From an uncultured Cellvibrionales bacterium (GTDB taxonomy: Bacteria; Pseudomonadota; Gammaproteobacteria; Pseudomonadales; Cellvibrionaceae): a DNA stretch of 64,000 nt. How positions within the stretch are numbered: the stretch's first letter is position 1; every line of letters starts with the position of its first letter. Where the stretch lies: positions 17,527 to 81,526 of the forward strand of contig CAJWZU010000001.1 of NCBI GenBank assembly GCA_913050115.1, in the 5' to 3' direction. Of the stretch, positions 37,644 through 58,819 are shown piece by piece. The position numbers and the translations under genes were made by a program. A model generated the notes under the pieces. The model saw nothing but the letters and a program-made list of their open reading frames with translations, did not search any database and was not told where the DNA came from.

Positions 37644-37860
37644 GGTCAAGCCCAAAAGCACATATAAAGAATATTTACCGCAGAGGGTAGGTGGTAAGGT
37701 CGCGGAAAGGCTGACAACAGAAAGCATCAGTCAATACTCATGTTATATTTAACCACATAGATTAAATCTTTCTGGCACTTGAGCATTGAAGAACACCCTC
37801 AGACCTTTTTTGTGGTCATATCCACCGATATTTTTACAGTATTTAAACCGGACAGCAGCA

Positions 37861-38541
37861 ATGCAAGACAGTAAAGACTTAATCAATCAAGTTGCAGGCC
37901 AATTAAAAAAGCAGGCGTCTAATCACGTGGCGTCAGCAGCACCCGGCCGCTCACAGCAGGGTAATCGTACACCGCCCAGCGACACAAAGATTGATGCCAT
38001 CAATCAAATCTTTACCCTGTTTCGTGTTAATTACCACAACCAGTATTACAAGGCCTTCAGCGACACTGAAACCCTCATAACCGCCAAACGTCTGTGGATG
38101 GAGTCTCTCGGCTATTTTGATACCGAAGCATTACTGCGCGGCGCCAAGCGTGCTATCGAGACCAGTGAATACCTGCCGACCTTAAAGAAGATGATCGACT
38201 GCTGTCAGGGCGACCTCAATCATCATGGCCTGCCCAGCGCCCACAACGCCTACATAGAAGCCTGCCGCGCACCCAGTCCTAAGAGTAGTTACAACTGGTC
38301 GCACTCGGCGGTTTACCATGCTGGCAAAATCAGCGACTGGCACTTTATCGGTAACAATATCCAGCGTATCGCCTTTCCAATTTTTGAGCGCAATTACCAA
38401 CAGTTGTGCGAGCGTATTATTAACGGTGAAAAACTGCCCCCGCCTGAAGTTAAAGCGCTGCCAGAAACTATTGAAACGCCACTCAGCGGTAAAGAAAATC
38501 ACCAGCGCATGGCCGAGCTGCGTAAAAGTATGGGGTTGTGA
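37861..38541 (+). CDS. Replication protein P-like protein (lambda P family)
   Basis: Start at ATG 37861. It is co-linear by eye with lambda P: INQIF..., RLWMESL, YLPTLKKMIDCC, GLPSAHNAY..AC, and the INGEKLPPPEVKALP tail. Confidence 0.65.
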   Translation: MQDSKDLINQVAGQLKKQASNHVASAAPGRSQQGNRTPPSDTKIDAINQIFTLFRVNYHNQYYKAFSDTETLITAKRLWMESLGYFDTEALLRGAKRAIETSEYLPTLKKMIDCCQGDLNHHGLPSAHNAYIEACRAPSPKSSYNWSHSAVYHAGKISDWHFIGNNIQRIAFPIFERNYQQLCERIINGEKLPPPEVKALPETIETPLSGKENHQRMAELRKSMGL

Positions 38542-40422: not shown

Positions 40423-40683
40423 TTACTTATTCGATCTATTTTTATACTGTGTTGGACAATACCCTCGGGTCACATCATCGCCACGCAGTTTTTTATGTTT
40501 AGTTGAGCGGCCGCTAACTCTTTCTCGCCACAACCTAAAACTTCTTGGTTTTAAACGGCTACGCATAAATTTCACCACATCAGACTCAATCATATTGAAC
40601 TGATGTTCTATGGCTTCAAATGGAGTTCGGTCTTCCCAAGCCATTTCTATAATTCTTGATTCTTCATCGATAAGAAATTGCAT
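40423..40683 (-). CDS. TIGR03643 / DUF2805 family small protein
   Basis: 86 aa with MAWEDRTPFEAIE..FMRS.LKP.SFRLWRERV as I recall for this family. It is usually linked to photolyase genes. Confidence 0.7.
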   Translation of the reverse strand: MQFLIDEESRIIEMAWEDRTPFEAIEHQFNMIESDVVKFMRSRLKPRSFRLWRERVSGRSTKHKKLRGDDVTRGYCPTQYKNRSNK

Positions 40684-40745
40684 AAAACCAACCTATAATT
40701 TATTAATCTAGACTTACAAAGATAGTAATTCAACTCAGACATTTC

Positions 40746-42296
40746 TTATAAATCATTTATATTATTCAGTAGATAAGTAGCACGGTCTCTAATTTCAACT
40801 TTCTTAGAGTCCTCCATCTTATCCCAGTTTCGCACCGGAAAACTCATGCGGTGGTTTGAGGATAACTTATCATAGTTAGTGTCAATGAAATTCCAATATA
40901 AGCTATTTAGTGGGCAAGCATTGTCACTGATCTTTTCTTTAACGTTATAGCGACAGCCTTTGCAATAGTCACTCATTTTATTAACGTAATTACCACTAGC
41001 AGCGTAAGGCTTTGTTGCAATCCAACCACCATCGGCGAAGAGTGCCATACCTCGTGTATTAGGCAGTTCAACCCATTCAATGGCATCGATATAAATACCT
41101 AAATACCATTGATCGACTTGCTCCGGAGAAATTCCAGCAAGCAGGGCAAAGTTGCCTGTAATCATTAATCTTTGAATATGATGAGCATAGGCATGCTCAA
41201 GTGATTGCGATATTGCACTTTTTAAACATTGCATGTTTGTTTCACCGCTCCAAAAGAAATCCGGCAAATCACGATGAGCGCCTAAAAAGTTTTGCTTGGT
41301 ATAGTTTGGCATATTAACCCAATACATACCTCGTACGTATTCTCGCCAACCAAGAATCTGTCTAACAAAGCCTTCAATTTGTGACAGTGTTATTTTTCCA
41401 TCTGACTTTTCATAGAATGAGATAGCAGTATTAATTACTTCCATCGGAGCAAGCATTTTACAATTTATTGAAAAGCTAAGACGGGAATGATATAAGCTCC
41501 AAGCATAGGGGGATGCTATGGTCATAGCATCCTGAAAGTTACCAAAATTTGGTAACTGATGCTCGCAAAAAAAATCCAATAAAAGCAGTGACTGCTGACG
41601 ATTAATTGGATATGCAATATTTATCGACTCATTACCTATGGTTTTAATATTATGCTTTTTTATACGCTGTAAAAAATCATCTGCTGGGTTGTCAAATATT
41701 AATGGTTTTGGAATGAGCTTGAGATCATTTTTTTTAAATGACTTTCTATTATTAGCGTCGAAATTCCAAGCATCACCTTCTGGTTTTTCACCGTTCATTA
41801 AAATAGAAAACCGTTTACGCATTGTGCGATAAAAATTCTCCATTCTTACGTGTGTACTTGGTTTAAAATAACTGTGCAGATCATCAAAAGGCAATAGAAA
41901 ATGTTCACTATCAACTTGATGAACTGTTATATCAAGGTTTTTTGATAAATCACACATTTGCTGCTTTAATCTATATTCATCAGGGCTCTGAAATGTGAAT
42001 GCTGCACATGAGTATTTTAAGATCAACGATTTTATTAATTCGGTAAGATCTTGAAAACCTTGAGTGTCATCTAATGTCAAATAACAGACACGATGCCCTT
42101 TAGATTCAAGCTGTTGCGCAAAATCGCTCATAGCAACAAAAAAGGCGGTGACTTTTTGAATGTGGTGTTTAGTGTAACTTGCCTCTTGATTGAGCTCAGC
42201 GATGAGATAAACAACATCAGGGTCGACATATTCGAACCAACTGTGCTTTGGATTAAGCTGGTCTCCTAATATAAGCTTTAAATGTTTTGCCTTCAT
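40746..42296 (-). CDS. Cryptochrome/photolyase family protein, FeS-BCP type (probable (6-4) photolyase, PhrB/CryB-like)
   Basis: 516 aa with the 'photolyase-related' architecture. The C-terminal cysteine set YCKGCRYNV...DNACP fits the 4Fe-4S ligands of this class. Confidence 0.75.
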   Translation of the reverse strand: MKAKHLKLILGDQLNPKHSWFEYVDPDVVYLIAELNQEASYTKHHIQKVTAFFVAMSDFAQQLESKGHRVCYLTLDDTQGFQDLTELIKSLILKYSCAAFTFQSPDEYRLKQQMCDLSKNLDITVHQVDSEHFLLPFDDLHSYFKPSTHVRMENFYRTMRKRFSILMNGEKPEGDAWNFDANNRKSFKKNDLKLIPKPLIFDNPADDFLQRIKKHNIKTIGNESINIAYPINRQQSLLLLDFFCEHQLPNFGNFQDAMTIASPYAWSLYHSRLSFSINCKMLAPMEVINTAISFYEKSDGKITLSQIEGFVRQILGWREYVRGMYWVNMPNYTKQNFLGAHRDLPDFFWSGETNMQCLKSAISQSLEHAYAHHIQRLMITGNFALLAGISPEQVDQWYLGIYIDAIEWVELPNTRGMALFADGGWIATKPYAASGNYVNKMSDYCKGCRYNVKEKISDNACPLNSLYWNFIDTNYDKLSSNHRMSFPVRNWDKMEDSKKVEIRDRATYLLNNINDL

Positions 42297-42321
42297 GTAT
42301 CTACCTTATTATGGAGATTTT

Positions 42322-43860
42322 TTATTTACTGAGTCTAAGCGGTTTTTTAGACTTGCGAACATGTTTCGCTAAAATACGTTGAGCTTCTACTTTTGTATCA
42401 AAACGTTTCCTGAAACCCCACAATATATCTCTGGCAAATTTACCTGTTTCTTTAATGTCAATCATAGGCTGAGGATAGCTCTTACCTAGATCAAACTGGT
42501 ATAAAACTTGTTCCATTAAAGACAATACCCATGGTGTATGTATTATCTCGTTAGGTAGCTGAGATAACTCTGGCACCCATTGACGAATAAAAAAACCGTC
42601 CTTGTCTTGTTCTTGTGATTGTTTAACAGGATTATACACTCTGATAGTATTCATACCTGTTACCCCTGATTGCATCTGAAATTGTGGGTAGTGAATACCT
42701 GGCTCAAAATCTAGAAAATATTTCGCTAAGTGCATAGCGCCAAGCCGCCAATCAACGAACAAATGATGACACAAAAAACTTACTAGCATCGATCGCATAC
42801 GAAAGTTGATGTAGCCTGTTTTTTCTAAACAGCGCATACAAGCATCAACGAGTGGATACCCTGTTTGAGCTGTTTTCCATTTTGTTAAACGTTCCTCAAT
42901 GCTCATCCCCATATGTATTTCTGGAAATTTAAGATTATTGTAGGCGTTATTGACAGGTCGCCACTGCATTTGGTGTTCACTTTCAAACTTTTGAATAAAG
43001 TGACAATGCCAATGTAATCTTGAGGCTAAAGCATCTAGTGGACGCTTCCAGCCAACTTGAGACCTTTTTAACAAAATTGTTTGATAGAACTGCCTCAAGC
43101 TTATGTTGCCCCAAGCTAAGTAAGGCGATAAGCGCGAGCAGCTTCGCCGACTTGCTAAGGGCTTGGATATATCAGACTGATAGTTTTTACCGCGTTTATT
43201 TAAGAATGATTGCAGTGTTCTAGACGCCCATTGTTCTCCGCCCTTGAGCATGAATTCATTCGGTATTGACCATGACTCAGGCAGCGTATGCTGAATTAAC
43301 TTATCCAAATCACTGACGTTAACAAGTGCCGATAACGATAAGTTTGGATGACATAACGGTGCAGTCATCACTTTACGCCAGTCCTTGTCCCAGTCGATTC
43401 TATTTTTTTTCCCTCGAATGACTGCGCCTGACTGGTATTCTCGCCAATTTACTTTGCGCGCGCGGCACCATTTGTTAACGTTTTTGTCCCTGGCATAGGT
43501 ACAAACTAAACCTATTTCTTCATGGCTAAATAAGTTCAACACATGAAATAAAGTGTTTATTTCATTAAGGCCATCAATTGCATCACCAAAAAAAACATAA
43601 ACACGTGTATTAAATTTTTCTAGCTGAATATTAATGTCTTGTATTGATTGCCACACAAAACGCCAATGCCTTTTATCATAATGAGGATCATCTATTAAAA
43701 TAGGTTCGAACGCGTAATAAAGTAATGTCAGACCAGATTCTAATGAATCCATTAAAGCGTGATTATCGCTGATTCGTAAATCACGCTTTAACCAAACAAC
43801 ATTAATATCTAGATTTAAACCCCTATAGACCTGTGTATTTTTATCTATGCCGTTAGCCAT
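42322..43860 (-). CDS. Cryptochrome/photolyase family protein (FAD-binding; class uncertain)
   Basis: 512 aa. N-terminal photolyase alpha/beta domain ([16 protein letters not shown]) and a C-terminal FAD domain ([11 protein letters not shown]...[14 protein letters not shown]...DWRLGA). Confidence 0.8.
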
Positions 43861-45214
43861 TGTCTTTGGCCATTGTTACTGGCCAGTCTGCTGCGTCAAC
43901 AGAGTCTAAAGGCTGATTGGATAAAAAATATTTATCACACGTTGAAGCCCACTTACTTTGATACCTACCGTCAGGATCAAAAATAACAGCTTGCTTTTGA
44001 AGATTGAAATGCCTACCACCTCTAGGGTCAACTCCAACACCTGCAATATATTGCCAGTTACCCCAATTGACAGCAGCATCGTAATCTATTAACTGCTCTT
44101 CAAACCAAGCTGCACCATAACGCCAATCTACACTGAGTTCATTAACCAAACAACTCGCGACAATTTGACGACCTCTGTTACTTAAATAACCAGTGATTCT
44201 TAATTCATTCATACAGGCATTAACTAACGGATAAGGTGTCATTCCTAGGCACCACTTACTAAACCGTTCTGGATAAAATGATGTTAGTGGTTGGCTACTA
44301 GAAAGCCCTTTGAACATGTAAGTTTTAGCACCCACCTTAAAATGACACCACTGAAAGTATTCACGCCATAGAATTTCTGCTGCCAAGCATTCAGTTGAAC
44401 TGTTTTTACCTCGCTGAATTTCAAACTGGCTAACTGAAGACATAACCTGCCGAGGCGAAATACAGCCATAGCCGAGCCATGGAGATAACTTGCTGCTGCT
44501 TTCCCAGCCATCTAAGTTATTTCTAACAGTTTTATAACTTAATGGTAAATCAGAACTAAAATATTGGTAAAGTTGCTTTATAGCCGATGTCTCGCCGCCT
44601 TCAAATACCATACCATTTGTCGGGTATTTGTGAGCCTTAACAGGTAACCAATGGGGCCTAACTATGGCCGGTGCTGGCACAGATTTAAACTGACTTGGTA
44701 AGGTTTTAATTGCAGGAGAAATATTGGGTATTGCAACATTATTCATTATTTTTTTAAATTTTGAATAACTTACTGGTAGCTGCTGAAGTTCAAAAGGCAG
44801 AAGCCCATGAGTAAACAAAGTGAACTGCTCAACTTTGTTTACTAACACTTGAGGAAAATTATCGCCTAATTGATTGATGAGCCTATTTTCATAAGTGCCA
44901 GGTAAATGAGTGGTAATTACATCAGTAATTTGGTGTATTTCACAAAGGCTCGCCAAACTAGGCAAAGTGTCACCATAAACAATATGCAGCTGTTGACCCA
45001 GACTGAGTAAGCTTTGATTGAAATTACTTAAACAACTTTGTAAGAAATTCCAACGATTTGCACCTATTGGCTTGGATTGATAGTTGTTAGGTTTGAACCA
45101 TTTTTGATCAACTACATAGACGCAAAGCAGGTAATCACTATCGCTGGCTAACTTAAGAGCCAAGTTATCGTTGATCCGCAAATCTTTAGTTAACCAATAT
45201 AAGGTGCGCTTCAT
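43853..45214 (-). CDS. Cry-DASH family cryptochrome / ssDNA photolyase
   Basis: 453 aa with the DASH-typical block [49 protein letters not shown]. Its stop overlaps the next gene's ATG by 8 nt. Confidence 0.8.
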
Positions 45215-45701: not shown

Positions 45702-46949
45702 CTAATCCAGCCATAGACTATAGACTTCGGCAAGTCGGTTCTTTATGCGATATTCACGCTCATCTTGTGCATCTAGTAACGTAAATGCTTTTTTAATAAA
45801 CTTTTCATTGCCTGACGCTGCAATCTTCATAATTTGAAAAGTGACTAATTTATAGACATTGTATAGTTCTTCAATGAGTTCGCACAAATCATCAAATTCT
45901 GGTTCTTCGTAATCCAGTTCTTTCCAAAAATAGGCTAAGCAATGCTCATAAGCATATTTTCGAGTAGAAAGTACTGGTATCTGCTCAAGTGCTAGTGCCA
46001 CGTTTTTGAGTTCAAGGACCCTTCCTTTTGCATCTTTACCCGCCACAAACATTTGCAGAATCTCGCGCGACGCAGAATTAAGCCCATTAAAGTTAGGCTC
46101 AACGCATTGCTGGTAAAAATTATTCACAGCCTCGTGTGTAAAAGGCCTGGCATGAGTATCATTAACAAGCAGGCCACCTTCAACGGTAGGCTGCTTAAAT
46201 GCATTGAGTATTCGATCTTTATCAACGATACCCTCCCAACGATAATCGGGATCATAAATAAACCATTGCGTTGGGTCGTTAGTTTTACCAACCATCACAT
46301 AGTGCGGAAAAGGGTCATGGTCAAACTCTTTATCAATACCAGGCAGGTGGTACATATCGAGCATTACTATAACGTGCTCAGCAGCTAATTTATTATCGAC
46401 AAGATAAGCTAATTTTTCTGCATTTTCAGCCTTAGATACCGAGGTGCTATACCAAGACTCAACTGTCATACCATATAGGGAAGTAAAGCCGTCCAACATA
46501 TACTGATGGCTAATATCATCGCTATGATAATTAAGTGTCGCTTCATCACTGACAATAACTTCTGCATCTGGAACACAAAAGTAATAAGGACGGTGATCAA
46601 GCTGCTTTTGCTTCACCAGCTCGCAGAGGCAGCTCGCTAAACAATGAACTTTTGCGTCGACATATTCTTCCAGTTTGCCATACCATTCTGGCAAAACCTG
46701 GTCTTCAAAGAGAGCATCAGCCAAATCACGGACCGTGTTAATTTCGTCGAGCGCACGTGTTTCATCCGATGCATAAAGTGCATCATTCAACGCGAGGCGA
46801 TCTAGCATATTAATAACATCAAGCGAGTTTAATGCTAATTCATCCAATAAAAGACTATTAGCATTAAAGCCGAGCAGATCAGTATGACTTTTTACATTAC
46901 TCAGATCTTGGTAAATACACTCAGATACTTGCTGTTTTGTTTTAATCAC
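45702..46949 (-). CDS. Orphan protein: carrier-protein-like N-terminus fused to a roughly 320-aa domain of unknown function (BtrH/papain-like transferase suspected)
   Basis: 415 aa. The GTG start overlaps the upstream stop (GTGA). Residues about 5-85 follow an acyl/peptidyl-carrier helix pattern (LLLDELALNSLDVINMLDRL ... INTVRDLADALFE). The remainder has a His-Cys motif (KVHCLASCLCE). Last gene of the NIS operon. Confidence 0.6.
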   Translation of the reverse strand: MIKTKQQVSECIYQDLSNVKSHTDLLGFNANSLLLDELALNSLDVINMLDRLALNDALYASDETRALDEINTVRDLADALFEDQVLPEWYGKLEEYVDAKVHCLASCLCELVKQKQLDHRPYYFCVPDAEVIVSDEATLNYHSDDISHQYMLDGFTSLYGMTVESWYSTSVSKAENAEKLAYLVDNKLAAEHVIVMLDMYHLPGIDKEFDHDPFPHYVMVGKTNDPTQWFIYDPDYRWEGIVDKDRILNAFKQPTVEGGLLVNDTHARPFTHEAVNNFYQQCVEPNFNGLNSASREILQMFVAGKDAKGRVLELKNVALALEQIPVLSTRKYAYEHCLAYFWKELDYEEPEFDDLCELIEELYNVYKLVTFQIMKIAASGNEKFIKKAFTLLDAQDEREYRIKNRLAEVYSLWLD

Positions 46950-48250
46950 GATAGCTCTACTAATCCAGATTTAACATTAGAATCACGTTTTGACACTGTT
47001 TGCAAAGCTTTATCAACCGGCTTGCCATTTCCTATTATCTGCATTTTAGTAGCCAAGCCCATCGTGCCCAAAAGATTAATAAACGGCACAGCATCAAGCT
47101 CTTCTACGTTAACCATTTTATTAATATTCCACACACCTTGAGCGATTAAAATGGCGGCCGCAACCGGTGGAACACCAGCCGTAAAGGCAACTGCCTGTGT
47201 ACCAATGTCAGCATAGGTTTCTTGATGATCACAAATATTGTAAATAAAGACTTCTTTTTTGTTAGCGTCTTTTTTACCTTTAATCAATGTACCTATACAG
47301 GTCTTACCGGTATAACCCTCAGCTAAGCTAGCAGGGTCTGGCAAGCATGCTTTTAGTACATGTAATGGAACAACTTTTATACCATCAGCAGTAGTTATTT
47401 CTTCGATGCCTAATAAACCTACTTCTTTGAATACAGTTAAGCAGTTGATGTAATGGTCATTAAAGCCCATCCAAAATCGAACATCTTTAACACCCTCAAT
47501 GAAATTTGGCAGAGAGTGCACTTCATCATGACCCATCAAATAGAGTTTTTGCTTACCCACAATCGGCATATCAAATTCCATTGAGCGAGAATGATGTGGA
47601 TAACTACGCCACTGACTATCTTCTAAACACCCTGCGTCATCGATAATCTCACGCAGATTAATTTCAGGGTCAAAGTTAGTCGCAAAAAAATGACCGTGAT
47701 TACCTGCATTAACATCTAGAATATCAATCGAATCTATCGAGTCAAACTCATGATCTTGTGCATATGCACAATAGGCATTAACTACACCTGGGTCAAAACC
47801 CACACCTAAAATAGCCGTTATGCCTTTCTTTTCACAAATGGATTTCTTGGTCCATTCAAACTCTTCATACCATGGGTATTCAGAGTTAAGTACAGCCGCT
47901 TCTTCATGTACAGCAGTATCAAGATAAGCCGCATCTGCTTCAATACATGCCTCGAGAATTGTCATGTTGGCAAAAGCGGTACATACATTAATAACTATAT
48001 CTGACTGTGTTTCTTTAATTAATGCGACAATTGATGACTTATCAAACGCATCTACTGTTCTTGCAAAAATAGAAAATCCTTCTTCAAAGTTATTGTTCCT
48101 ATTTTTTATATCTTCAATTACAGCTTCACATTTTGATAAAGTACGTGAAGCAAAACATACTTGGGAAAAAATATGTGAATACTGTGCACATTTTTGAGCT
48201 GATGCTATACCTACAGCACCAGCGCCAATAACTAATATACTTTTTTTCAT
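46946..48250 (-). CDS. Carboxy(nor)spermidine dehydrogenase (saccharopine-dehydrogenase family)
   Basis: 434 aa. Rossmann N-terminus KKSILVIGAGAVGIASAQKCAQ, with overall co-linearity to Vibrio-type CANSDH as I recall it. Adjacent to nspC. Confidence 0.8.
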   Translation of the reverse strand: MKKSILVIGAGAVGIASAQKCAQYSHIFSQVCFASRTLSKCEAVIEDIKNRNNNFEEGFSIFARTVDAFDKSSIVALIKETQSDIVINVCTAFANMTILEACIEADAAYLDTAVHEEAAVLNSEYPWYEEFEWTKKSICEKKGITAILGVGFDPGVVNAYCAYAQDHEFDSIDSIDILDVNAGNHGHFFATNFDPEINLREIIDDAGCLEDSQWRSYPHHSRSMEFDMPIVGKQKLYLMGHDEVHSLPNFIEGVKDVRFWMGFNDHYINCLTVFKEVGLLGIEEITTADGIKVVPLHVLKACLPDPASLAEGYTGKTCIGTLIKGKKDANKKEVFIYNICDHQETYADIGTQAVAFTAGVPPVAAAILIAQGVWNINKMVNVEELDAVPFINLLGTMGLATKMQIIGNGKPVDKALQTVSKRDSNVKSGLVELS

Positions 48251-48302
48251 TAAATTCTCATTTTAGCAAACGGACAGATTACATATAAATTTTAAATATT
48301 CA

Positions 48303-49454
48303 TTAAGAGAGGCAATCTCTAAAATCCTCATAACCAAAAGTTTTCACGAGCTTAGTTATGCCACTAATTTTTTTCAAATATATCGAGGGCATTTTTATAC
48401 CATTAAAATAATTTTTCTTTACCATCGAATATCCTCCGACATCAGAAAATGTTAATGTATCGCCTATCTTTATAGGCCTATTAAACTGATAGACACCAAA
48501 AATATCACCCGCTAAACATGTACGCCCGGCGACACGATATAAATTGGCTAAATTAATTTTATCTACTGGAATTGAGTTTTTATCATCGAGCGCATCAGCC
48601 CCTATAAGTTCAGGAGTATAATCATAAACCAGTGCATCTAATAAATGTGTTTCAACGCCAGCATCAACGATTAGAGAAGGAACTTCATTATCTACAATGT
48701 CGATAACAGTCACTACCAATGAGGTAGATTCGGTGACAGAAGCCTCGCCTGGCTCTAAGTAAATCTGCACTGAATACTTATTAGCGAGATCCTTTAGACG
48801 TGCACTAAATTCATCTAAAGGGTAGCCCTCTGTAGTAAATGCAACGCCGCCACCTAGACTTAGCCATTCCAGCTGTTGCAGTAACTGGCCAAACTTTATT
48901 TCTAACTCATCAAGTTGTGTATTAAAACTATGAAAATCTTCATTTTCACAATTCATATGCAGCATTGCACCATTAATCTTGTCTGAGATGTCAAGAGGTA
49001 GCTTATCTTTGGTTACGCCTAGGCGTGAATATCTAGAAACAGTGTCACTCAACAAATATTCAGAAAAACCAATTTGAGGGTTTAAACGCAGCCCAATGGA
49101 TACGCCGCCAATTTTTGCCTTATCAATATGGCGATCGAGCTGACTTAATGAATTGAAAATTATTTTCCCACAGACACTAACAACCTCATCAATTTCGTCA
49201 TCAGTATATGCCACTGAATAACCATGAGTTTCGCCGCCAAATTTTTCACTACCGAGCTTTGCCTCATAAAGACTACTACTAGTGGTACCTACTAAATAAT
49301 CCTTCATAAAATCAAAAGCACACCAGCTAGAAAAGCACTTTAACGCTAATACGGATTTAGCACCGCTTATATCACGCACAGATTTTATTTTTTGCATAGC
49401 TGTAAGCATGCGATTTTCATCAATTAGATAATAAGGAGTTTTCATTATGATCAT
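48303..49454 (-). CDS. nspC: Carboxy(nor)spermidine decarboxylase
   Basis: 383 aa with TPYYLIDE...GAKSVLALKCF...GTTSSSLYE..LG.E.FGGETH.YSVAY.DDEIDEV, the NspC pattern in PLP fold type III. Confidence 0.85.
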   Translation of the reverse strand: MIIMKTPYYLIDENRMLTAMQKIKSVRDISGAKSVLALKCFSSWCAFDFMKDYLVGTTSSSLYEAKLGSEKFGGETHGYSVAYTDDEIDEVVSVCGKIIFNSLSQLDRHIDKAKIGGVSIGLRLNPQIGFSEYLLSDTVSRYSRLGVTKDKLPLDISDKINGAMLHMNCENEDFHSFNTQLDELEIKFGQLLQQLEWLSLGGGVAFTTEGYPLDEFSARLKDLANKYSVQIYLEPGEASVTESTSLVVTVIDIVDNEVPSLIVDAGVETHLLDALVYDYTPELIGADALDDKNSIPVDKINLANLYRVAGRTCLAGDIFGVYQFNRPIKIGDTLTFSDVGGYSMVKKNYFNGIKMPSIYLKKISGITKLVKTFGYEDFRDCLS

Positions 49455-49494
49455 TCGCTCTTTAGTAAAAACTTATTTTGCAAAACTTTATTCA

Positions 49495-51435
49495 CTAGCA
49501 AACACTTAAACTAGGTGCAGATACGTCTTTGGCTAAATACTTATTCGTAATCTTCATTGCATCCGTAAGGCTCGCATCACAAGCTAAAGCATTGGTAACT
49601 TCATGGTCAAACCAAACAGTATGTAGCCCTTGCTTAATTTTCTTTTCTAATAATGATTCAATGTTGACCATAGCTCGCCCGATGTTAATCGCTGCAAATC
49701 TTTCTTCATTGGTTACACCTGATTCTTTATATGCTTCAATTACTGTGTTAAATAATAACCAAAATCTTGATTCCGAAAAAACGTAATGTTTTTCTAATAT
49801 GAACGAAAGCTCACTTAAATTAAAGACACAAACTGCATCAAGAAATAATTCGCAAAGGTCATCGGTATCTTCACTAATAAAGCCCTCATCAATTGAACAT
49901 TCGTTAAACCAAGAATCTACAGAAGCAGGATTTGGTCTATTTTCTGGGTGTACTAAAAATTCAGTCAAATATTCAGTATCTTCATGAAAATCACGCATAG
50001 CAATACGCGTAGGCCAGCCATTTTTGTGTATAAGAACAAGATTTTGAGCATGCGATTCAAAGCCAATCCCATGATGAACCAGCAAATGCCAAATGGGTAA
50101 AACAGCCACTTTTAGTAACTGCTTAAGCCATGACTCGATACCGTATTCATCTAGCCAATCAGCAATAAAAAGACGCTCATCTGACTCTATAAGCATTAAA
50201 GCTGTAAAAGGAATAGCAGCCTCTCGCTCTCTTACCTCATCTAGAACGCTAGTTCTAAAGATTGCCCCAATAAGCCCTTCTTCTGCCTCAGCCACATACG
50301 CAGATCTTGCTTCACAGTCATAATCTCCTGCAGTTGGAATATACGAAATAGCCGCATATTCACTAAGCATTACTAAGTGATCCTGTTCTTGCAAAAAGGC
50401 ATCTTCACTTACAATATTTTGCAACCAATTGGACAAAACTGGCGCGGTAATCACAAAGTGTTCAGGTAAATTACGATTTGATGATGTCGACATAACATTC
50501 ATCGGTAACTTAACATTTGCTTTCTTAGGATTAGTAACATTAATTACTGTACGTAGCGATTGGCTGGCTTGGTAAAAATCACCTGCACTGCCCAAATTGA
50601 TAATTTCGCCACGGGCTATGGCAGCAATAACACCTGCATTATCAGTTGATTCTGGCTCATTGGATAAAATTGAAGCGACCTGCCAAGGATGTAATGGCAT
50701 CAAACCAAATGCAGCCCAGTTAGCACCGCGTTGATGTAAAGCTTGAGTCAGCACATCATAAGTCTCGCTAATTTCTTGTTGCCAGAAATTAGCTTCATCT
50801 ATTGGAAAATTACATTGATAGTCTTGGCGATGAATTGCGAACCAGACGAGTTGAAATTGATTAGCGGCTTCGGGGCTAAATGCTCGCTGATCTTCAACTG
50901 TGAAACCACGGCGCGCTTTAAAGCATGGATGATAAAGATGTCCCTCATGAATGGCTGACTCAAGCGCAAGAAAATCTAATTTACGTCGCACATTTTTCAA
51001 GTGAGGTAAATTAACTGAGTTCCACGAACATAAAGCAATAGTTTGCTCAAGCTCAGCAAGTAAATCCGCCTTAGACTTGGCCTCCATATTTAATGGCTCG
51101 ACCAAATCGTAAATAGAAGCCTCATGCCATTTATTGTGACTAAGCGCCTGAACTGAACCTAGTGCAATACGCACTCGATCAAAACTACTAATAAATGCTG
51201 TACAACGTAATTGACATTTGCCAATTGAGACAGATAGCTGCCGATCATATATTGTCTCGGAATCTGTGTTGCAAGTGTCCAGCGGCGATGACTTAAAAGG
51301 CACTATTTTTTCGTAAAGCAAGGCCTCTAAAAACTGTTTTACCAGGCGCCGTTGAGCAACTGAAGCGTCTTTAAAACAGGCCTGCTGTTTAAATAACTGA
51401 TCTTTTTCTCGTTGCGATTGAGACTTTACCGCCAT
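49495..51435 (-). CDS. IucA/IucC-family NRPS-independent siderophore (NIS) synthetase
   Basis: Start at ATG 51435 with GGGGAG 6 nt upstream. Family blocks HEGHLYHPCFKARRGF and GFESHAQNLVLI, plus an FhuF-like C-terminal region. Confidence 0.88.
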   Translation of the reverse strand: MAVKSQSQREKDQLFKQQACFKDASVAQRRLVKQFLEALLYEKIVPFKSSPLDTCNTDSETIYDRQLSVSIGKCQLRCTAFISSFDRVRIALGSVQALSHNKWHEASIYDLVEPLNMEAKSKADLLAELEQTIALCSWNSVNLPHLKNVRRKLDFLALESAIHEGHLYHPCFKARRGFTVEDQRAFSPEAANQFQLVWFAIHRQDYQCNFPIDEANFWQQEISETYDVLTQALHQRGANWAAFGLMPLHPWQVASILSNEPESTDNAGVIAAIARGEIINLGSAGDFYQASQSLRTVINVTNPKKANVKLPMNVMSTSSNRNLPEHFVITAPVLSNWLQNIVSEDAFLQEQDHLVMLSEYAAISYIPTAGDYDCEARSAYVAEAEEGLIGAIFRTSVLDEVREREAAIPFTALMLIESDERLFIADWLDEYGIESWLKQLLKVAVLPIWHLLVHHGIGFESHAQNLVLIHKNGWPTRIAMRDFHEDTEYLTEFLVHPENRPNPASVDSWFNECSIDEGFISEDTDDLCELFLDAVCVFNLSELSFILEKHYVFSESRFWLLFNTVIEAYKESGVTNEERFAAINIGRAMVNIESLLEKKIKQGLHTVWFDHEVTNALACDASLTDAMKITNKYLAKDVSAPSLSVC

Positions 51436-51679
51436 AAATAGCTCCCCGCTGCATTGCAGACATAAACCAGTAAAACGCTTCGGCAACAGCACAGAACCAT
51501 TGCGATTGATTCTTATTCAAACAAACCGGGAACTTTATAGCGTTTGATGCGAGCACTCCAAGACTGTTGCAAATGTTACAACACATGTCTTACCAATTTT
51601 GGCTTGAGTCTGGGCGGCTATTCACTTGTAAAAAGTACAGCATATGTAAAATCTAAGCTGTAAATCTTGTAACAATCGT

Positions 51680-51698
51680 ATTAATGAGAATCATTAAC
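51680..51698. promoter_or_regulatory. Fur box in the divergent NIS promoter region
   Basis: attaatgagaatcattaac matches the GATAATGATAATCATTATC consensus at 15 of 19 positions. The core is a perfect inverted repeat ttaatga-N3-tcattaa. It lies about 90 nt upstream of the ATG at 51788. Confidence 0.65.
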
Positions 51699-51787
51699 AC
51701 GTACATTGGCGACCATATAAAAGTATCGTGTCTCTTATACTGGGGTACATGAATACACTGATGCTAACTTAACTTGGTTAAACCGAT

Positions 51788-53713
51788 ATGACAGTCAGTC
51801 CGTGGACAATTGCCGAAAACGCATCTTTTAATGTATTTGCTAACAGCTACTTAGCTGAAGTTGATAGTGGCTGCATAATTAAAGGTAGCGCGGGTAACGA
51901 AAGCATCCTCTTACAGCTTCAAAATTCAGAGCAGCTGCTTCGTATTGAACTCATTCAAGCCTCTTGTTTTGGGCCCAGTAAACTGGGAGAAGCCTTCTCC
52001 TGTAGAACACCCGATAATTTCAGCCATACCCCTAGCACCACAGAATATTCATCGCTGCAGTGGAGGCAAGCCGATAAACTATTTCTAATCTCACTTTTAG
52101 TAAGAGAGATCTATGCTAAGCAAGCAGAGCGCCTCAAGAATAACGCGAGCCTTAGTAAAATTGAGCAAGGATCCCTTGCTAATGGACAAATAAAGGCCAA
52201 AGAAAGCGAGCTATTGATGCGTATACATGAAAGCTATCAAGCAATGGCCACTTATCTTGAAGCTAGACAAGGCGATAGCACACTCTCTTCTTTATCGTTT
52301 ATTCAGAGCGAACAAAATATTTTATTTGGCCACTGGTTACATCCCACACCAAAAAGTAAATTGGGACTAGCATTCTGGCAACAGGCTCACTATTCACCGG
52401 AACTTAAAGGACATTTTGCCCTTCACTATTTTGCAGTTGATCAAAGCATTGTTACTCAAGCGAGCCTATTTGAAAAGAGTACAAGCGATCTCATATATGA
52501 CGATCTAGCACCCTTTTTAACATCTGATGAGAAGCGAAAAGTCGATGCATTAGTCGACTCTGGCTGCGCACTGATACCCGCTCACCCTACACAAGCTCAC
52601 TATTTACTCCTGCAAGGTGAAATACGTACACTTATGAGTCGTAGTAAAATTCACTATTTAGGTGAATTGGGCTCTGAGCACACGGCAACCTCTTCGGTTA
52701 GAACCCTCTATGCTGAACACTTACCTTGGATGTATAAGTTTTCTATACCTGTGAAAATTACCAATTCACTTCGTAGCAATTTTAAAGATGAGCTTGAAGA
52801 TGGTATGGCAGTGGAGCTGTTTCTAAGAGAAAAAGGCTTCTTTGAACAACATCCGCGTTTCAAAATGCTTGAAGACCCAGCCTATATAACAGTAAATTTA
52901 CCCAGTAATCCCGAACTTGAATCTGGTTTTGAAACTATCTTGCGACGTAATTTTCTGTATCAATCAACCGAGGCCAATAGCACTTGCTCAATTTTAGCTT
53001 TGGTTCAAGAGCCTGTTGAACTTAACTCAAATGGCGAAGGTAAAAGCGCGCTAAATAAGCTTATTATTGAACTCGCGGAAAGAGATCAGCAGACAACCGA
53101 GACAACCGCATTAAAGTGGTTTGAAGCGTACTTTAAATGCTCTGTCGAGCCTCTACTCAGTCTTTATGATGATTATGGTATTGCTCTGGAAGCACATCAG
53201 CAAAACAGTCTATTAGATCTAGAATCTGGATATCCAAAAGCATACTATTATCGAGATAATCAGGGTTTTTATGTATCGACACGTTATCAAGAAACCTTCG
53301 ATTTTATTGACTCAATGAGAACTATGTCGGATCTCATCTATGATGATGAAAATATATTTGAAGCATTCTCATATTATGTATTTATCAACCAATGCTTTGC
53401 TGTGATGCATAGGCTCTCAATTGACAATCTCATATCGGAAGAAACTTTAAAAAATTGGCTGATAGAAAGATTACTCGTTTTACAATCACAATTTAATGGT
53501 ATTGCTAAGCTATATATCACCCATATTCTTGCACAGCCTAAAATTGCATTTAAAACTAATTTGTTAACCAGAGTATTAGATATAGATGAATGTTCTTCAG
53601 ACTTAGAAATGGATGTATATGGAACAATTAATAATCCAATTTTTGTTAAATCATTAACTGACAAAGTCGATTCAAAAGATCTATCTGCTAATGAAGTTGA
53701 GTCTATCAGCTAA
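51788..53713 (+). CDS. IucA/IucC-family NIS synthetase
   Basis: 641 aa with family blocks LFGHWLHPTPKSKLG and ALEAHQQNSLLDL. Transcribed divergently from the other synthetase. Confidence 0.88.
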   Translation: MTVSPWTIAENASFNVFANSYLAEVDSGCIIKGSAGNESILLQLQNSEQLLRIELIQASCFGPSKLGEAFSCRTPDNFSHTPSTTEYSSLQWRQADKLFLISLLVREIYAKQAERLKNNASLSKIEQGSLANGQIKAKESELLMRIHESYQAMATYLEARQGDSTLSSLSFIQSEQNILFGHWLHPTPKSKLGLAFWQQAHYSPELKGHFALHYFAVDQSIVTQASLFEKSTSDLIYDDLAPFLTSDEKRKVDALVDSGCALIPAHPTQAHYLLLQGEIRTLMSRSKIHYLGELGSEHTATSSVRTLYAEHLPWMYKFSIPVKITNSLRSNFKDELEDGMAVELFLREKGFFEQHPRFKMLEDPAYITVNLPSNPELESGFETILRRNFLYQSTEANSTCSILALVQEPVELNSNGEGKSALNKLIIELAERDQQTTETTALKWFEAYFKCSVEPLLSLYDDYGIALEAHQQNSLLDLESGYPKAYYYRDNQGFYVSTRYQETFDFIDSMRTMSDLIYDDENIFEAFSYYVFINQCFAVMHRLSIDNLISEETLKNWLIERLLVLQSQFNGIAKLYITHILAQPKIAFKTNLLTRVLDIDECSSDLEMDVYGTINNPIFVKSLTDKVDSKDLSANEVESIS

Positions 53714-54350: not shown

Positions 54351-55742
54351 TTATTCTTCGGGTGGAGTAAGGCGTCGTGGGCTATACATATAAAACAATA
54401 CCATAGCAATTATGAACGTTAGTCCTTCAGCTATAGGAATGGCATACAAATAATTATTATCATCGAAAATAATATAAAATAGCAACACTAAGCCTATGGG
54501 TAAAAACAAAGAACGCAAGCTTGCAATAACCGAAGACTGTAATGCCAATTCAGCTGATGTTAAGTAAGCACTGGCTAACACATTAAAGCCACTAAACAAA
54601 AATATTGGCCAAACAATATGAATAAAATCGAGCGTTAGAGCTTGGGTTTTTGTCGCTCCATCCTCGAGAAAAAAGTTTACTAACGTTTCTTCAAAAGAAA
54701 ATAATATACAGATCTGAACAACAGTCAATGTTGCGATACAAGCACCAGCCATTTGCATGAACTTAACGACACGTTCGATTTTATGCGCACCAAAATTTTG
54801 TCCTAATAACACATGCATAGAATCCACTATCCCGTAATAAACCATTAAACTTATATAAATAAAATAATTTATCACACTAAATGCAGCAATACCTTGTATG
54901 CCACTTTGGAGATTGATAACCCAGTGAAAAACTAAGATAACAAAACCTATAGAAGTTTCATTTATAAATTCTGAGAATCCATTACAGCCAGACTGTACTA
55001 ATGTTTTAAAGTTAAATTTTGGCCAGTATAATTTCAAATTAGTATTAGGTATTTTGAAATAACGAAAAATATATAATAATTGCACAACCTCAGCACAGAG
55101 CGTTGCCCATGCAGCTGCTTGAATACCATAGCCCAAGTAGCCTATAAACAAAGTATTTAAACAAATATTAGTTATAGCACCAAGTATAAGAGCTTTCATT
55201 CCATGTTGAGGTTTATTATCTGCTCTAAAAAAATAATAACAAACAAGCCCACAAAGCTGAATAACAATGGCAGGTGCAAGAACCACGAAATATTGGTTCA
55301 TCAAATCGAATAGGGACCGATCAGCTCCTAAGCCGATAAATAAACTGTCACTAAAATACAACGAAATAGGTAACGCAATTAAATTAAAAGCCAATACTGA
55401 AAAAAATACCTGGCTGTAAATATTCGATGCGGTTTTAACGTCACGTTTTCCTATAGCAATACTCGCTTTGACTGAGCCACCGACGGCTAACATAAGTGCC
55501 AGACCAAATAATAGCCCAAAATATGGCACTAATAAGTTGACCGAAGCGAGGGCTTCCTCACCAATATATTTACCTACAAAAAATCCGTCAACAACAGCAG
55601 CAGTTGAAATAGCGAGCAAACTCAACGTTGAAGGAATGACAAATTTAAAAAAAGTCGAAACCACTGGTCCATCGACAGCGTCAACATCAATAATTTCGCC
55701 ATAGTCATTATATTGGATTTCTATGTTTTTCTGTTCAGACAT
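54351..55742 (-). CDS. MATE family efflux transporter
   Basis: 463 aa, about 12 TM segments with a MATE-like layout. Last gene of the MFP-RND-MATE operon, 14 nt after the RND gene. Confidence 0.8.
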   Translation of the reverse strand: MSEQKNIEIQYNDYGEIIDVDAVDGPVVSTFFKFVIPSTLSLLAISTAAVVDGFFVGKYIGEEALASVNLLVPYFGLLFGLALMLAVGGSVKASIAIGKRDVKTASNIYSQVFFSVLAFNLIALPISLYFSDSLFIGLGADRSLFDLMNQYFVVLAPAIVIQLCGLVCYYFFRADNKPQHGMKALILGAITNICLNTLFIGYLGYGIQAAAWATLCAEVVQLLYIFRYFKIPNTNLKLYWPKFNFKTLVQSGCNGFSEFINETSIGFVILVFHWVINLQSGIQGIAAFSVINYFIYISLMVYYGIVDSMHVLLGQNFGAHKIERVVKFMQMAGACIATLTVVQICILFSFEETLVNFFLEDGATKTQALTLDFIHIVWPIFLFSGFNVLASAYLTSAELALQSSVIASLRSLFLPIGLVLLFYIIFDDNNYLYAIPIAEGLTFIIAMVLFYMYSPRRLTPPEE

Positions 55743-55756
55743 AATATAGCTCTTTA

Positions 55757-58700
55757 CTAATAATCATTTTGTTTCATTACTTTGTTAGTATTTGAAGCAA
55801 TAAGTATATAGAGGTGGGGTAGTAGAAATAAGGTAAGAAAAGTGCCGACTGCCATGCCGGCTACAAGGATAATACCTATACTATTTCTTGCTTCGGCACC
55901 TGCTCCTGTGACTAGCACTAACGGAATATGACCTAACACAGTGGCTAATGTAGTCATTAATATAGGGCGAAATCGAAATCTGGCAGCTTCTGTAATAGCT
56001 TCAAGTTTTGCTACTCCTTTTTCTTGTAGCTCATGTGCAAACTCGGTCATTAAAATTCCATTTTTCGCGATCAGGCCAACAAGTGTAATTAAACCTATCT
56101 GAGCGTAGAGGTTAATACTACTGAAACCTAGAAAGGTGAACAGAAGGGCTGAGCTTAAGGCCAGCGGTACACTGCCTAGCAACACAACCAACGGAAGACG
56201 CACATTATTAAATTGTATTGCTAGAGCTAAATATACAATTACAAGTGCTGCAGCTAAAACATTAAGCAAGCTGTTACTTTCTTGTTTGACCTGACGAGAT
56301 ATACCTGCATAATTTATTGCATAGCTTTCGGGCAATATGCTGCGAGCGATAGATTCTATTTTTTCAAGCGCGTCGGCCTGTGTACCGTGCGGAAGCACAC
56401 CACCCGATATAGTAAAACTTGCTTGCTGATTGAACCGCCTAATGACGCGAGGTGATACTACACTTTTTATTCTTGCCAAATTTCTAAGCGGTATTAATAC
56501 ACCGCCACGAATTTCAATGGGTACATCTAATAGCTGGCTGCTGAAGGATTTATCGGAGTCTTGTAACGTTGGGATTACCCTTAAAGCTCTAGCATCACCG
56601 GCTTGCTTACTACCATTAAAACGATTAATACTTTGTTCGCTAAGCATTAATGCAAGCTGCTCTGAAACAGAAGCAACTGTCATATTAAATTCAGCAAGCT
56701 TATCATGATCAAATACAATACTTGCTTGGGGAAGATTCACTTCAAGATCAGTAAATGCATACATGAAAAGACCTGTTTCATAAGCACTGTCTACCAACTC
56801 TCTTGCATAGCTTAACATTGATGCATAGTCATCATCGGCTGTAACAACCATCTCAACATCAAAATAACCAGCTGTAGGCAGAGATGGAGGTAGTGTAGGA
56901 AATGCTTTTAGACCTGAAATGTTTGCCAGCGATGAATAAACTTCGCTGATTTTATCATGTACGGTGTAATCACGTTCACTGGAATCTAATAATTCTATGC
57001 CGCCGAAACCGCCATTATGGCTGATAACCTGCCACATTTTTTGATAGCCATCTATTGTGGATACACTATCAATGACGTCATCCATATAACGATGCACATA
57101 GCTTATAGAAGTATCTGGTGCTGCTTCAATGATAACTTCTATACTGTTTTGATCTTCAATCGGCGCAAGTTGTTTGCTTGAAAAAAAGTAAAAGGGAAAA
57201 CACAATAAAGATAGAACTAAGCCAATACAAATAGCTTGGGGTTTTATAGAATAGCTTTTTCTTAGAAATTCTATATATTTAAAGTTAGCTTTATCAAAAA
57301 TAGCTAGTATTTTTTTTTGATATGATGATTTTTTTGATGAGCCACCTTTAAATATAAATGCACTTATTACAGGTGATAGTGTAAGAGCGACAATACCAGA
57401 CATTATGACAGCTATAGATAACGTAAAAGCGAACTCTGAAAATAAGCTACCGGTTAAGCCACTGACAAAGCCTAGTGGCACATAGACAGCAGCAAGTGTA
57501 AATGTCATTGCAATAATCGGGCTTAACAGCCTTTTGCTAGCAAGCTTTGCCGCTTGAATAGGTGATTTTCCTTCGTTGATGAGCCTAGCCACATATTCAA
57601 CCACAACAATTGCGTCATCAACTACCAATCCAACTGACAGTACAATAGCCAGTATGGTTAATAAATTTAATGAGAAGCCCATCATTTGCATAGCAGCAAT
57701 AGCGCCTAGTATAGAGATAGGAATAGCCATGAGTGGCACTAAAGCGCTGCGAAGTGAACCCATCATCAGCACAACTACGATACTAACAAGAACAACAGTT
57801 TCAATAAGTGTGATGAAAATTTCTTTTAATGCTGAACGCATATAAAGCGTACCGTCGTAACCTGCTTCAATGGTTAAACCCTCAGGGAGTTGTGGCTTTA
57901 TTTTTTCAAGTTGTTTATACAATGCGTCGCCGATTTCAATTTCATTACTGCCCGGCTCTGGCCATATAGAAATATAAATAACTCGATCTTTATTGAAACG
58001 AGCATCGATTAGTCCAGTCTCTTCACCCAGAAAAACTTTGGCCACTTGCTGTAAGTGTATTTGATTACTCGTGTTTTTATCATCAGATTTTATGATCATA
58101 TTTTCAAAATCTGAGACACTAGAAAAAATGGTATTACCCATGATCTGCATTTGTTGTTGATTATTTTCTGTTTTACCGAAACCTGTTAAAATATTATTGC
58201 GCGCCAGAGCTCGCTTAACATCGAGTGCGCTAACATTCATGGCAAACATTTTATGGCTATCGAGTTGAATCCGCATAGCAGGAAGTCGCCCACCTTCAAA
58301 ACCAACCTCTTGCACACCAGTAATACTAGTAAGCTTTGGTACAATTTTCTGATTTAAGAAGTCGGTAAGCTCATTACGTGGCATAGTCTTAGTACGAGCA
58401 TCAAGATAGAACAACGCCGCTTGCCTATCTGCACGTCTCAACTCAACGACAGGGTCTTCGGCATGATCTGGAAGTTCATAGGTTATTTGGCTAAGTTTGG
58501 TATTAAGTTCTGTAAGTGCCCTATTAGAATCTTCGTCGATTTTAAGCCAAGCAGTGATGGTGCTTTGACCTGCTGTACTGTCAGAATCGATGTAATCTAT
58601 GCCAGCAATAGTCATGACTACTTTCTCAATTGGAGCTGTTACAAATCCCTTAACGATTTGTGCTGAGCTTCCCGGAACATGAGTATTTATAACTAAAGCA

Positions 58701-58819
58701 CTTGAATTAATTTTTGGGAATTGCAAAATAGGTATATTTTTTATCGCAACTAGACCTGCCAAGCATAGAATAGCTGAAAGAGTAAAAGCAATTAAAGGTC
58801 GGTTTACAAATAAAGTCAT
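55757..58819 (-). CDS. RND efflux permease (AcrB/HAE-type)
   Basis: 1020 aa with a typical RND N-terminus (FVNRPLIAF...), two large periplasmic loops and 12 TM segments. Confidence 0.9.
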   Translation of the reverse strand: MTLFVNRPLIAFTLSAILCLAGLVAIKNIPILQFPKINSSALVINTHVPGSSAQIVKGFVTAPIEKVVMTIAGIDYIDSDSTAGQSTITAWLKIDEDSNRALTELNTKLSQITYELPDHAEDPVVELRRADRQAALFYLDARTKTMPRNELTDFLNQKIVPKLTSITGVQEVGFEGGRLPAMRIQLDSHKMFAMNVSALDVKRALARNNILTGFGKTENNQQQMQIMGNTIFSSVSDFENMIIKSDDKNTSNQIHLQQVAKVFLGEETGLIDARFNKDRVIYISIWPEPGSNEIEIGDALYKQLEKIKPQLPEGLTIEAGYDGTLYMRSALKEIFITLIETVVLVSIVVVLMMGSLRSALVPLMAIPISILGAIAAMQMMGFSLNLLTILAIVLSVGLVVDDAIVVVEYVARLINEGKSPIQAAKLASKRLLSPIIAMTFTLAAVYVPLGFVSGLTGSLFSEFAFTLSIAVIMSGIVALTLSPVISAFIFKGGSSKKSSYQKKILAIFDKANFKYIEFLRKSYSIKPQAICIGLVLSLLCFPFYFFSSKQLAPIEDQNSIEVIIEAAPDTSISYVHRYMDDVIDSVSTIDGYQKMWQVISHNGGFGGIELLDSSERDYTVHDKISEVYSSLANISGLKAFPTLPPSLPTAGYFDVEMVVTADDDYASMLSYARELVDSAYETGLFMYAFTDLEVNLPQASIVFDHDKLAEFNMTVASVSEQLALMLSEQSINRFNGSKQAGDARALRVIPTLQDSDKSFSSQLLDVPIEIRGGVLIPLRNLARIKSVVSPRVIRRFNQQASFTISGGVLPHGTQADALEKIESIARSILPESYAINYAGISRQVKQESNSLLNVLAAALVIVYLALAIQFNNVRLPLVVLLGSVPLALSSALLFTFLGFSSINLYAQIGLITLVGLIAKNGILMTEFAHELQEKGVAKLEAITEAARFRFRPILMTTLATVLGHIPLVLVTGAGAEARNSIGIILVAGMAVGTFLTLFLLPHLYILIASNTNKVMKQNDY

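Follow-up and report, generated by a model that had tools for sequence, protein, structure and literature searches.

The 64,000-nucleotide window analysed here, a stretch of contig CAJWZU010000001.1 from an uncultured Cellvibrionales bacterium, carries a five-gene siderophore cluster between positions 45702 and 53713. We consider it probable that this locus is a derived, rearranged petrobactin-type (asb) cluster of the NIS class (siderophores made independently of nonribosomal peptide synthetases), located on an acquired genomic island and completed in trans by activating and cap-forming genes. Judging from its gene content, the cluster appears to be of the petrobactin type with a built-in triamine supply, and its most likely product is a chelator of the petrobactin family that receives its cap through loading in trans. 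Petrobactin itself is bis(3,4-DHB-spermidinyl)citrate, in which DHB stands for dihydroxybenzoate. Because asbC and asbF were searched for and not found, we class the locus as an asb-derived variant and not as a full petrobactin cluster. CANSDH, CASDH and CASDC denote carboxynorspermidine dehydrogenase, carboxyspermidine dehydrogenase and carboxyspermidine decarboxylase. The features of the cluster are the following.

45702-46949, minus strand: asbDE1, AsbD-AsbE fusion, 415 aa, GTG start
46946-48250, minus strand: CANSDH/CASDH-like dehydrogenase, 434 aa
48303-49454, minus strand: nspC/CASDC decarboxylase, 383 aa; start at 49445 in public gene calls
49495-51492 as an open reading frame (ORF) with GTG start, likely 49495-51435, minus strand: AsbB-like NIS synthetase, 646 aa from the ATG at 51435
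51436-51787: divergent control region of 352 bp between the asbB and asbA starts
51680-51698: Fur-box-like site ATTAATGAGAATCATTAAC, 15/19 consensus positions
51788-53713, plus strand: AsbA-like NIS synthetase, 641 aa

The minus-strand genes form an operon in the order asbB-nspC-CANSDH-asbDE, and asbA is transcribed divergently from it. The ATG at 51435 is the asbB start in public gene calls on identical metagenome contigs, and with this start the divergent region measures exactly 352 bp. The intergenic gaps in the operon are 40 nt (49455-49494) and 52 nt (48251-48302), and CANSDH passes into asbDE1 through a GTGA start/stop overlap, read in the sequence as ...TCGTGATT.... An earlier, sequence-only reading of this DNA had described the five ORFs, the divergent synthetases, the 352-bp region, both gaps and the overlap, all of which were confirmed in place. 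Its further claims of an NIS siderophore cluster with a plausible Fur box, of a carboxy(nor)spermidine dehydrogenase/decarboxylase pair within the operon and of a carrier/transferase fusion also held.

Both synthetases contain the Pfam IucA_IucC and FhuF domains. The best match of the minus-strand enzyme in the Protein Data Bank (PDB) is AsbB of Bacillus anthracis (3TO3, E 2.7e-83), aligned over its full length (residues 26-617), with IucC as the second match (E 2e-41), and we assign it as a putative AsbB-like type C NIS synthetase. The plus-strand enzyme has the type A enzymes IucA and AcsD as its best PDB matches and is predicted to be a type A, AsbA-like synthetase. Matches to the NCBIfam FslA model are weak (86 and 53 bits; cut-off 1000). 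Compared with the petrobactin-type cluster of Bacterioplanoides sp. SCSIO 12839, the identities are 46% for AsbA (full length), 47% for AsbB and 47% for AsbDE, and reach 66% for NspC, 66% for CANSDH and 62% for the MATE transporter that lies beyond asbA in the window.

The 415-aa protein at the end of the operon matches Pfam DUF6005 (PF19468) with an E value of 4e-114. This family serves as the AsbE model in the methylolanthanin study, in which an asbD-asbE fusion is present in the rhodopetrobactin, roseobactin and methylolanthanin loci (PMC11317620). Single-sequence searches were blank, both for Pfam on the N-terminal 95 aa alone and for phmmer with the whole protein against the PDB, which returned nothing useful, so that a family profile and a fold search were needed. 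A profile of residues 1-85 and their homologues matched acyl carrier proteins in the PDB (E 4e-9), with the invariant Ser42 aligned to the serine that carries the phosphopantetheine arm. In a fold search of the PDB, the AlphaFold2 model (pLDDT 88) came closest to the papain-like ligase CtaG (E 1e-8), with CcbD next, and its N-terminal domain again matched acyl carrier proteins. Residues 1-85 thus form an acyl/aryl carrier domain and residues ~95-415 a DUF6005/AsbE papain-like ligase. Cys103, His216 and Asp233/235 are invariant in 57 homologues, and by their spacing they probably correspond to the CtaG triad Cys11/His128/Asp144. CtaG, AsbE, BtrH and MllDE have been grouped as one class of carrier-dependent Cys-His-Asp papain-like ligases (PMC12865890). 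We conclude that the protein, here AsbDE1, is an AsbD-AsbE fusion, combining a carrier domain with a papain-like Cys-His-Asp ligase. CtaG, from the closthioamide pathway, uses its triad to convert a carrier thioester to an amide (PMC12865890); BtrH and CcbD are further comparable ligases. Sequence identity with CtaG is only ~14%, and the two differ in their acceptors, which for AsbE is a free amine and for CtaG is attached to another carrier protein.

Considering these assignments, the locus shares with the petrobactin asbABCDEF clusters of B. anthracis, Marinobacter and Alteromonas macleodii the AsbA- and AsbB-like synthetases, the AsbD carrier and the AsbE ligase. It differs from them in having no asbC or asbF, in the fusion of AsbD with AsbE, in the divergent asbA and in the CASDH/CASDC genes within the operon. 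The Alteromonas asb locus (L004) resembles the window in its adjoining MATE gene and in a Fur box upstream of asbA. The sequence-only reading had proposed an undescribed polyamine siderophore system with a 415-aa unknown and orphan protein, and had set petrobactin aside for its different accessory genes. The first two claims did not survive the family assignments: the 415-aa protein belongs to the AsbE family, and the fusion together with the AsbA- and AsbB-like synthetases is that of a petrobactin-type cluster. Nor did the third, as CASDH/CASDC genes stand in the asb clusters of 18/80 loci surveyed and have been published (PMC13573596). On the other hand, its remark that no characterised cluster had this exact gene set stood, since the set was unmatched in the 80 loci of the Genome Taxonomy Database (GTDB), in metagenome contigs and in 1.84 billion representative proteins. 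That the gene set and order were not found elsewhere in the surveyed databases would be in keeping with a categorically new system built around an orphan carrier/transferase and unrelated to known ones. We regard this as very improbable, as the homology results already contradict it: each biosynthetic gene is 46-66% identical to its Bacterioplanoides petrobactin-type counterpart, AsbB is the best PDB match of the minus-strand synthetase, and DUF6005 is the AsbE family (PMC11317620).

The dehydrogenase carries the Pfam domains Sacchrp_dh_NADP and Sacchrp_dh_C, scores 463 bits with the NCBIfam carboxynorspermidine synthase model (equivalog cut-off 800) and matches 4INA (E 8e-101) and the CASDH structure 8DEB (E 8e-92) in the PDB. 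The decarboxylase has the Pfam domain Orn_DAP_Arg_deC (the Orn/DAP/Arg decarboxylase sheet domain), scores 406.2 bits with the nspC model TIGR01047 (equivalog cut-off 409.05) and matches 3MT1 (E 1e-119), as well as 9EAF and 3N29. The two genes are adjacent, and their products align over the full length with solved CASDH and CANSDC (the corresponding carboxynorspermidine decarboxylase) structures. Because both scores fall below the equivalog cut-offs, we interpret the enzymes as family members that are probably diverged paralogues of an asb-linked type. The GTDB scan, with one genome per species, gave 80 loci with an AsbDE homologue, all checked by local tblastn; nspC and/or CANSDH lie within the cluster in 18 of them, from Oceanospirillales, Cellvibrionales (Marinagarivorans), Myxococcota, Verrucomicrobiota and one Rhodobacteraceae. 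A chance adjacency of housekeeping polyamine genes is ruled out by the operon spacing and by this recurrence. Polyamine genes within petrobactin clusters have also been reported, for example in Microbulbifer and Bacterioplanoides sp. SCSIO 12839 (PMC13573596), and the window is a further case in favour of dedicated CASDH/CASDC copies as a recurrent component of asb clusters.

The pair could alternatively extend an NIS intermediate, for example by converting citryl-putrescine to citryl-spermidine, similar to the action of FslC in the Francisella rhizoferrin pathway; this was the second option of the sequence-only reading. The scores under the equivalog cut-offs and the membership of an asb-linked paralogue set would agree with such a role. 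FslA/FslC likewise combine an NIS synthetase with a PLP-dependent decarboxylase of the alanine-racemase fold, but the window decarboxylase is, unlike FslC, of the nspC type and is paired with a CASDH, which is the standard two-step aminopropylation route. Besides, the structures nearest to the two enzymes are those of genuine CASDH and CANSDC, with full-length alignments, and AsbA and AsbB of B. anthracis use free spermidine. The presence of arginine decarboxylase in the clusters L003 and L093 also fits a de novo supply of free polyamine (PMC13573596), and we therefore hold the intermediate route to be unlikely.

Among the closest known systems are the Oceanospirillales-type asb clusters (Bacterioplanoides sp. 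SCSIO 12839, Oleispira and Bermanella; L003, L007-L012 and L093), which share MATE, asbA, asbB, asbDE, nspC and CANSDH with the window. Unlike the window, they are co-linear (asbA-asbB-asbC-asbDE-asbF-nspC-CANSDH), include asbC and asbF, and often add a phosphopantetheinyl transferase, an arginine decarboxylase and a second CANSDH paralogue. In Bacterioplanoides the order is arginine decarboxylase, CANSDH, phosphopantetheinyl transferase, MATE, asbA, asbB, asbC, asbDE, asbF, nspC, CANSDH. Clusters of this type with an arginine decarboxylase include L003 (1-2470 and 12209-14648) and L093 (17397-21893). Some, such as L003, hold two CANSDH paralogues with 39% mutual identity, and the second copy might be a carboxyaminopropylagmatine-type dehydrogenase. 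In Rhodopseudomonas and Methylobacterium, the clusters for rhodopetrobactin and methylolanthanin (mll) have the AsbD-AsbE fusion in common with the window. They differ from it in their essential AsbC domain fused to AsbB, in using homospermidine, in an acetyltransferase and in having no CASDH/CASDC.

In the divergent control region, the Fur box ATTAATGAGAATCATTAAC is the sole site with at most 4 mismatches in the 64 kb, and a comparably good site arose in 0.4% of shuffles of the 352-bp region (P ~0.004). It lies 90 nt upstream of asbA and 245 nt from the asbB start codon. The box falls in a ~55-bp block that is ~90% conserved with L095, a relative identified by asbA at 85%, while the neighbouring 70 bp are only ~45% identical. 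The good Fur box of the sequence-only reading was borne out. Fur boxes with 2-4 mismatches also occur 60-240 nt upstream of asbA in L004, L025, L055 and L066, from the genera Alteromonas, Litoribacillus, Arenicella and Rheinheimera. The box would overlap a candidate asbA -35 element, TTAACA in the window and TTGACA in L095, with a candidate -10, TATAAA or TACAAA, 15-16 nt downstream. A promoter/terminator scan showed no enrichment over shuffles, and the candidate asbA promoter escaped it owing to the final A of the -10 element. Two intergenic blocks, 51542-51584 and ~51656-51710, are conserved with L095. They contain the inverted octamers TGTTACAA (~51572) and TTGTAACA (~51668), ~95 bp apart, which might be a second regulator site or promoter elements besides the Fur box.

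Several observations weigh against the reading of an asb cluster completed in trans. Among the 80 GTDB loci, asbC stands directly upstream of asbDE in every one, and asbF directly downstream in 67. The 64-kb window contains no asbC, no asbF and no remnant of either in tblastn searches with the Bacterioplanoides proteins, and 156 AsbC, AsbF and phosphopantetheinyl transferase homologues gave only noise against it at E values up to 1. The flanks (~9 kb to the left, ~7.8 kb to the right) likewise hold housekeeping genes only, without asbC or asbF. Neither a receptor nor a phosphopantetheinyl transferase was found nearby, and the window has no TonB-dependent receptor; the ORFs of at least 600 aa outside the island encode IlvD, a chitobiase, ParE and ThiC only. 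Loading in trans is thus assumed, with the search covering the window and ~9 kb flanks. Fur control of the four-gene operon is also less clear and does not follow from the sequence, given the 245 nt that separate the box from the asbB start. The estimates of selection are approximate, as dS is ~1 and near saturation: for the window against the 85% lineage (L005), the ratio of nonsynonymous to synonymous substitution (dN/dS) is 0.049 for nspC, 0.073 for CANSDH and 0.073 for AsbDE, with 0.079 for its carrier and 0.071 for its ligase domain. Finally, AsbDE1 carries 13 fixed changes at otherwise conserved positions, so that it may work with another partner or substrate than in the petrobactin paradigm.

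The 13 loci without a downstream asbF comprise 12 Neorhizobium/Rhizobium loci and one contig end. The twelve rhizobial loci (L029, L031, L033-L037, L041, L044, L046, L048 and L070) hold asbA, asbB, asbC and asbDE, and asbF was not detected in them at the threshold used. An in-cluster asbF is therefore not universal, whereas asbC is across the 80 loci. In L061 (Shinella lacus), the stop-to-stop frame that contains asbC upstream of asbDE is 1056 aa long and its N-terminal part matches AsbB (35% over 604 aa), giving an AsbB-AsbC fusion like Methylobacterium mllBC. Only the window lineage has neither asbC nor asbF, namely the window itself (identical to L001 and L002), L005 at 85% and L006 at 75% identity. 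For the cap, 3,4-DHB is our default guess. Supply in trans has a precedent in a Methylobacterium mutant, where a dehydroshikimate dehydratase encoded outside the cluster supplies 3,4-DHB for rhodopetrobactin (PMC13370498).

The absence of asbC, asbF, a phosphopantetheinyl transferase and a receptor from the window and flanks could also mean that the locus is a non-functional or partly functional remnant, producing at most an uncapped citryl-bis(polyamine) with AsbDE1 idle, and a degenerate 384-aa IucA/IucC gene in a related contig (L092) shows that decay does occur in the group. We find this quite unlikely. The five ORFs are intact, with invariant catalytic residues and a conserved Fur-box block, and dN/dS is ~0.07 on both AsbDE1 domains between two lineages without the asbC arm. 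As the window and the 85% lineage both lack that arm, the constraint on AsbDE has been kept without it. With low dN/dS, invariant catalytic residues and the four-gene operon asbB-nspC-CANSDH-asbDE conserved at 75% and 85% amino-acid identity, the cluster genes appear to be functional rather than decaying.

The 13 changes were identified at columns conserved in at least 95% of 82 other AsbDE proteins (83 columns; 93 columns for the AsbB equivalent). In the window lineage, 13/83 columns are replaced and fixed, compared with 0-5 in other clades and with 1/93 in its own AsbB (Fisher's exact test, p = 3.6e-4 vs AsbB and 1.8e-7 vs other clades). The replacements are A32S, L46I/V, E53A/Q, W154G, E204G, R205I, N207K, N210D, F262I/V, H301F/Y, L317V, G337C and R343K. 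A long-branch artefact as their cause was ruled out by the single change in the lineage's AsbB. Two of the changed positions, L46 and E53, fall within carrier helix II (residues 42-54 of the AlphaFold2 model), which in carrier proteins is the partner-recognition helix. This pattern would fit a changed loading partner or a changed substrate, identifying neither.

A tentative alternative is, therefore, that AsbDE1 is a neofunctionalised paralogue, independent of AsbC and AsbF, which is charged by another loader and places a cap other than 3,4-DHB (for example 4-hydroxybenzoate (4-HB), 2,3-DHB or an acyl group) on citrate-bis(spermidine or norspermidine), giving an undescribed petrobactin-family product. 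The excess of AsbDE-specific replacements, including L46I/V and E53A/Q on helix II, argues for it, as does the canonical carrier of L092, which at only 30% identity to AsbDE1 suggests two distinct paralogues. A switch of cap also has a precedent in methylolanthanin, where loss of AsbF function leads to 4-HB (PMC13370498). On the other hand, nothing points to a particular alternative loader or cap, a diverged AsbC elsewhere, with which AsbDE1 co-evolved, can equally account for such sequence shifts, and L092 and L006 may come from different organisms. The possibility of such a change in function thus remains the less probable one, and we continue to favour the asb-derived cluster with its cap loaded in trans.

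Contig L092 (JAANSZ010370480, 38% G+C) was obtained in the AsbA search, its AsbA (P0279) being 71% identical to that of the window. It carries asbA, the degenerate 384-aa IucA/IucC gene, an intact asbC and the start of a canonical carrier. Its asbC is 58% identical to that of L093, and its carrier is 68% identical to L093 AsbDE. The 384-aa gene (1978-3132) has neither the N-terminal region nor FhuF and shares 21-31% identity with AsbB proteins. It has the look of a canonical asbB in decay, replaced by the window-type asbB. L006, from the sister assembly JAANSW, has asbB-nspC-CANSDH-asbDE1 followed by convergent MATE and RND genes. We infer that L092 and L006 may come from one organism, in which case this relative would combine the divergent AsbDE1 with a canonical AsbC/AsbD(E) arm. 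L095 is co-linear with the window through the control region, asbA, a non-coding gap and the 3' end of the MATE gene, and in the window and the 85% lineage a MATE-RND-membrane-fusion module stands in place of the asbC arm downstream of asbA.

Among complete relatives, L093 and L094 are the closest, with 48% AsbA identity and the order MATE-asbA-asbB-asbC-asbDE-asbF-nspC-CANSDH-DUF2218-arginine decarboxylase. AsbDE identity to the window does not exceed 47% across the 80 GTDB loci, and in neighbour-joining trees of both AsbDE and AsbB the window lineage groups with the clade carrying nspC and CANSDH. An exhaustive HMMER scan of the 1.84 billion proteins found one representative of the lineage, with the next relative at 37% identity, and a JGI metagenome scan recovered the L005 contig alone. 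The window lineage is rare.

Based on these assignments, we propose a theoretical biosynthetic scheme. Following the chemistry of their families, CASDH and CASDC would use aspartate semialdehyde and a diamine, giving spermidine if the diamine is putrescine and norspermidine if it is 1,3-diaminopropane. By orthology to the B. anthracis enzymes, the AsbA-like synthetase would couple citrate to one triamine and the AsbB-like synthetase would add the second. AsbDE1 would carry the acid in thioester linkage to the phosphopantetheine on Ser42, pass it to Cys103 and from there to the free terminal amine of the polyamine, a chemistry modelled on AsbE and CtaG, of which the fold and the catalytic residues are seen here. 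AsbC and the 3,4-DHB synthase AsbF, together with a phosphopantetheinyl transferase and a receptor for uptake, would act in trans from outside the cluster. Export would proceed through the MATE transporter, possibly with the RND pump and membrane-fusion protein, and Fur would repress at least asbA through the box overlapping its candidate -35.

Petrobactin-type siderophores are thought to be important for ocean iron cycling. A published petrobactin screen needed asbAB co-located with asbF (PMC8776838), and surveys of this kind, or those requiring asbABCDE together (PMC11317620), would miss the window lineage. The locus indicates that an asb gene set can be reordered and can lose the genes for making and activating the cap while the carrier-ligase stays under strong selection, which raises the question of what loads the AsbD-AsbE fusion once AsbC is gone. 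If the cap differs, the cluster would represent a new siderophore and a natural re-programming of a CtaG-like thiotemplated ligase. If AsbDE1 is neofunctionalised, it would point to an undescribed petrobactin-family siderophore of rare mesopelagic Cellvibrionales that is invisible to asbF-based screens.

Beyond asbA, the island carries the efflux genes listed here.

54351-55742, minus strand: MATE transporter, Pfam MatE
55757-58819, minus strand: RND pump, Pfam ACR_tran 5e-223
58829-59995, minus strand: membrane-fusion protein, 388 aa, BSH_RND/HH_MFP_RND domains
~39900-60300: low-GC island, from composition profiles

The MATE transporter is a probable siderophore exporter, judging from its linkage to the cluster. 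In L006 it is linked as well, in a different arrangement, and an RND gene follows it there too. The RND pump and the membrane-fusion protein are possibly part of the export system, for which the sole precedent is petrobactin export in B. anthracis via ApeX (PMC5596346).

The island spans ~20 kb with ~37-38% G+C, compared with ~49% in the flanking backbone, and its cargo comprises the siderophore cluster, the efflux genes and three photolyase-family genes. No tRNA gene, integrase or convincing flanking repeats were found at its boundaries. We conclude that it is horizontally acquired, foreign DNA in a Cellvibrionales host. The ParE of the backbone is 86% identical to Maricurvus and Exilibacterium proteins, thus indicating a Cellvibrionales-like backbone. 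Identical contigs derive from Tara Oceans, and one gene name reads TARA_085_MES (mesopelagic).

Elsewhere in the window, a 405-aa ORF on the minus strand (22111-23328) has no Pfam match at 1e-5. At 36321-38541, 1.4-3.6 kb from the left edge of the island and adjoining a RadA/Sms-like ATPase gene, two proteins are encoded: one has a DnaT domain, with three DnaT DNA-binding repeats according to Pfam, and the other is phage-lambda-P-like. Directly downstream of asbDE within the island (40423-45214), the three photolyase-family genes stand in a row with a DUF2805 gene: a DPRP-type gene (40746-42296), a photolyase (42322-43860) and a photolyase/cryptochrome-like gene (43853-45214) that overlaps the preceding one. 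This trio is an odd cargo for an organism sampled from the mesopelagic.

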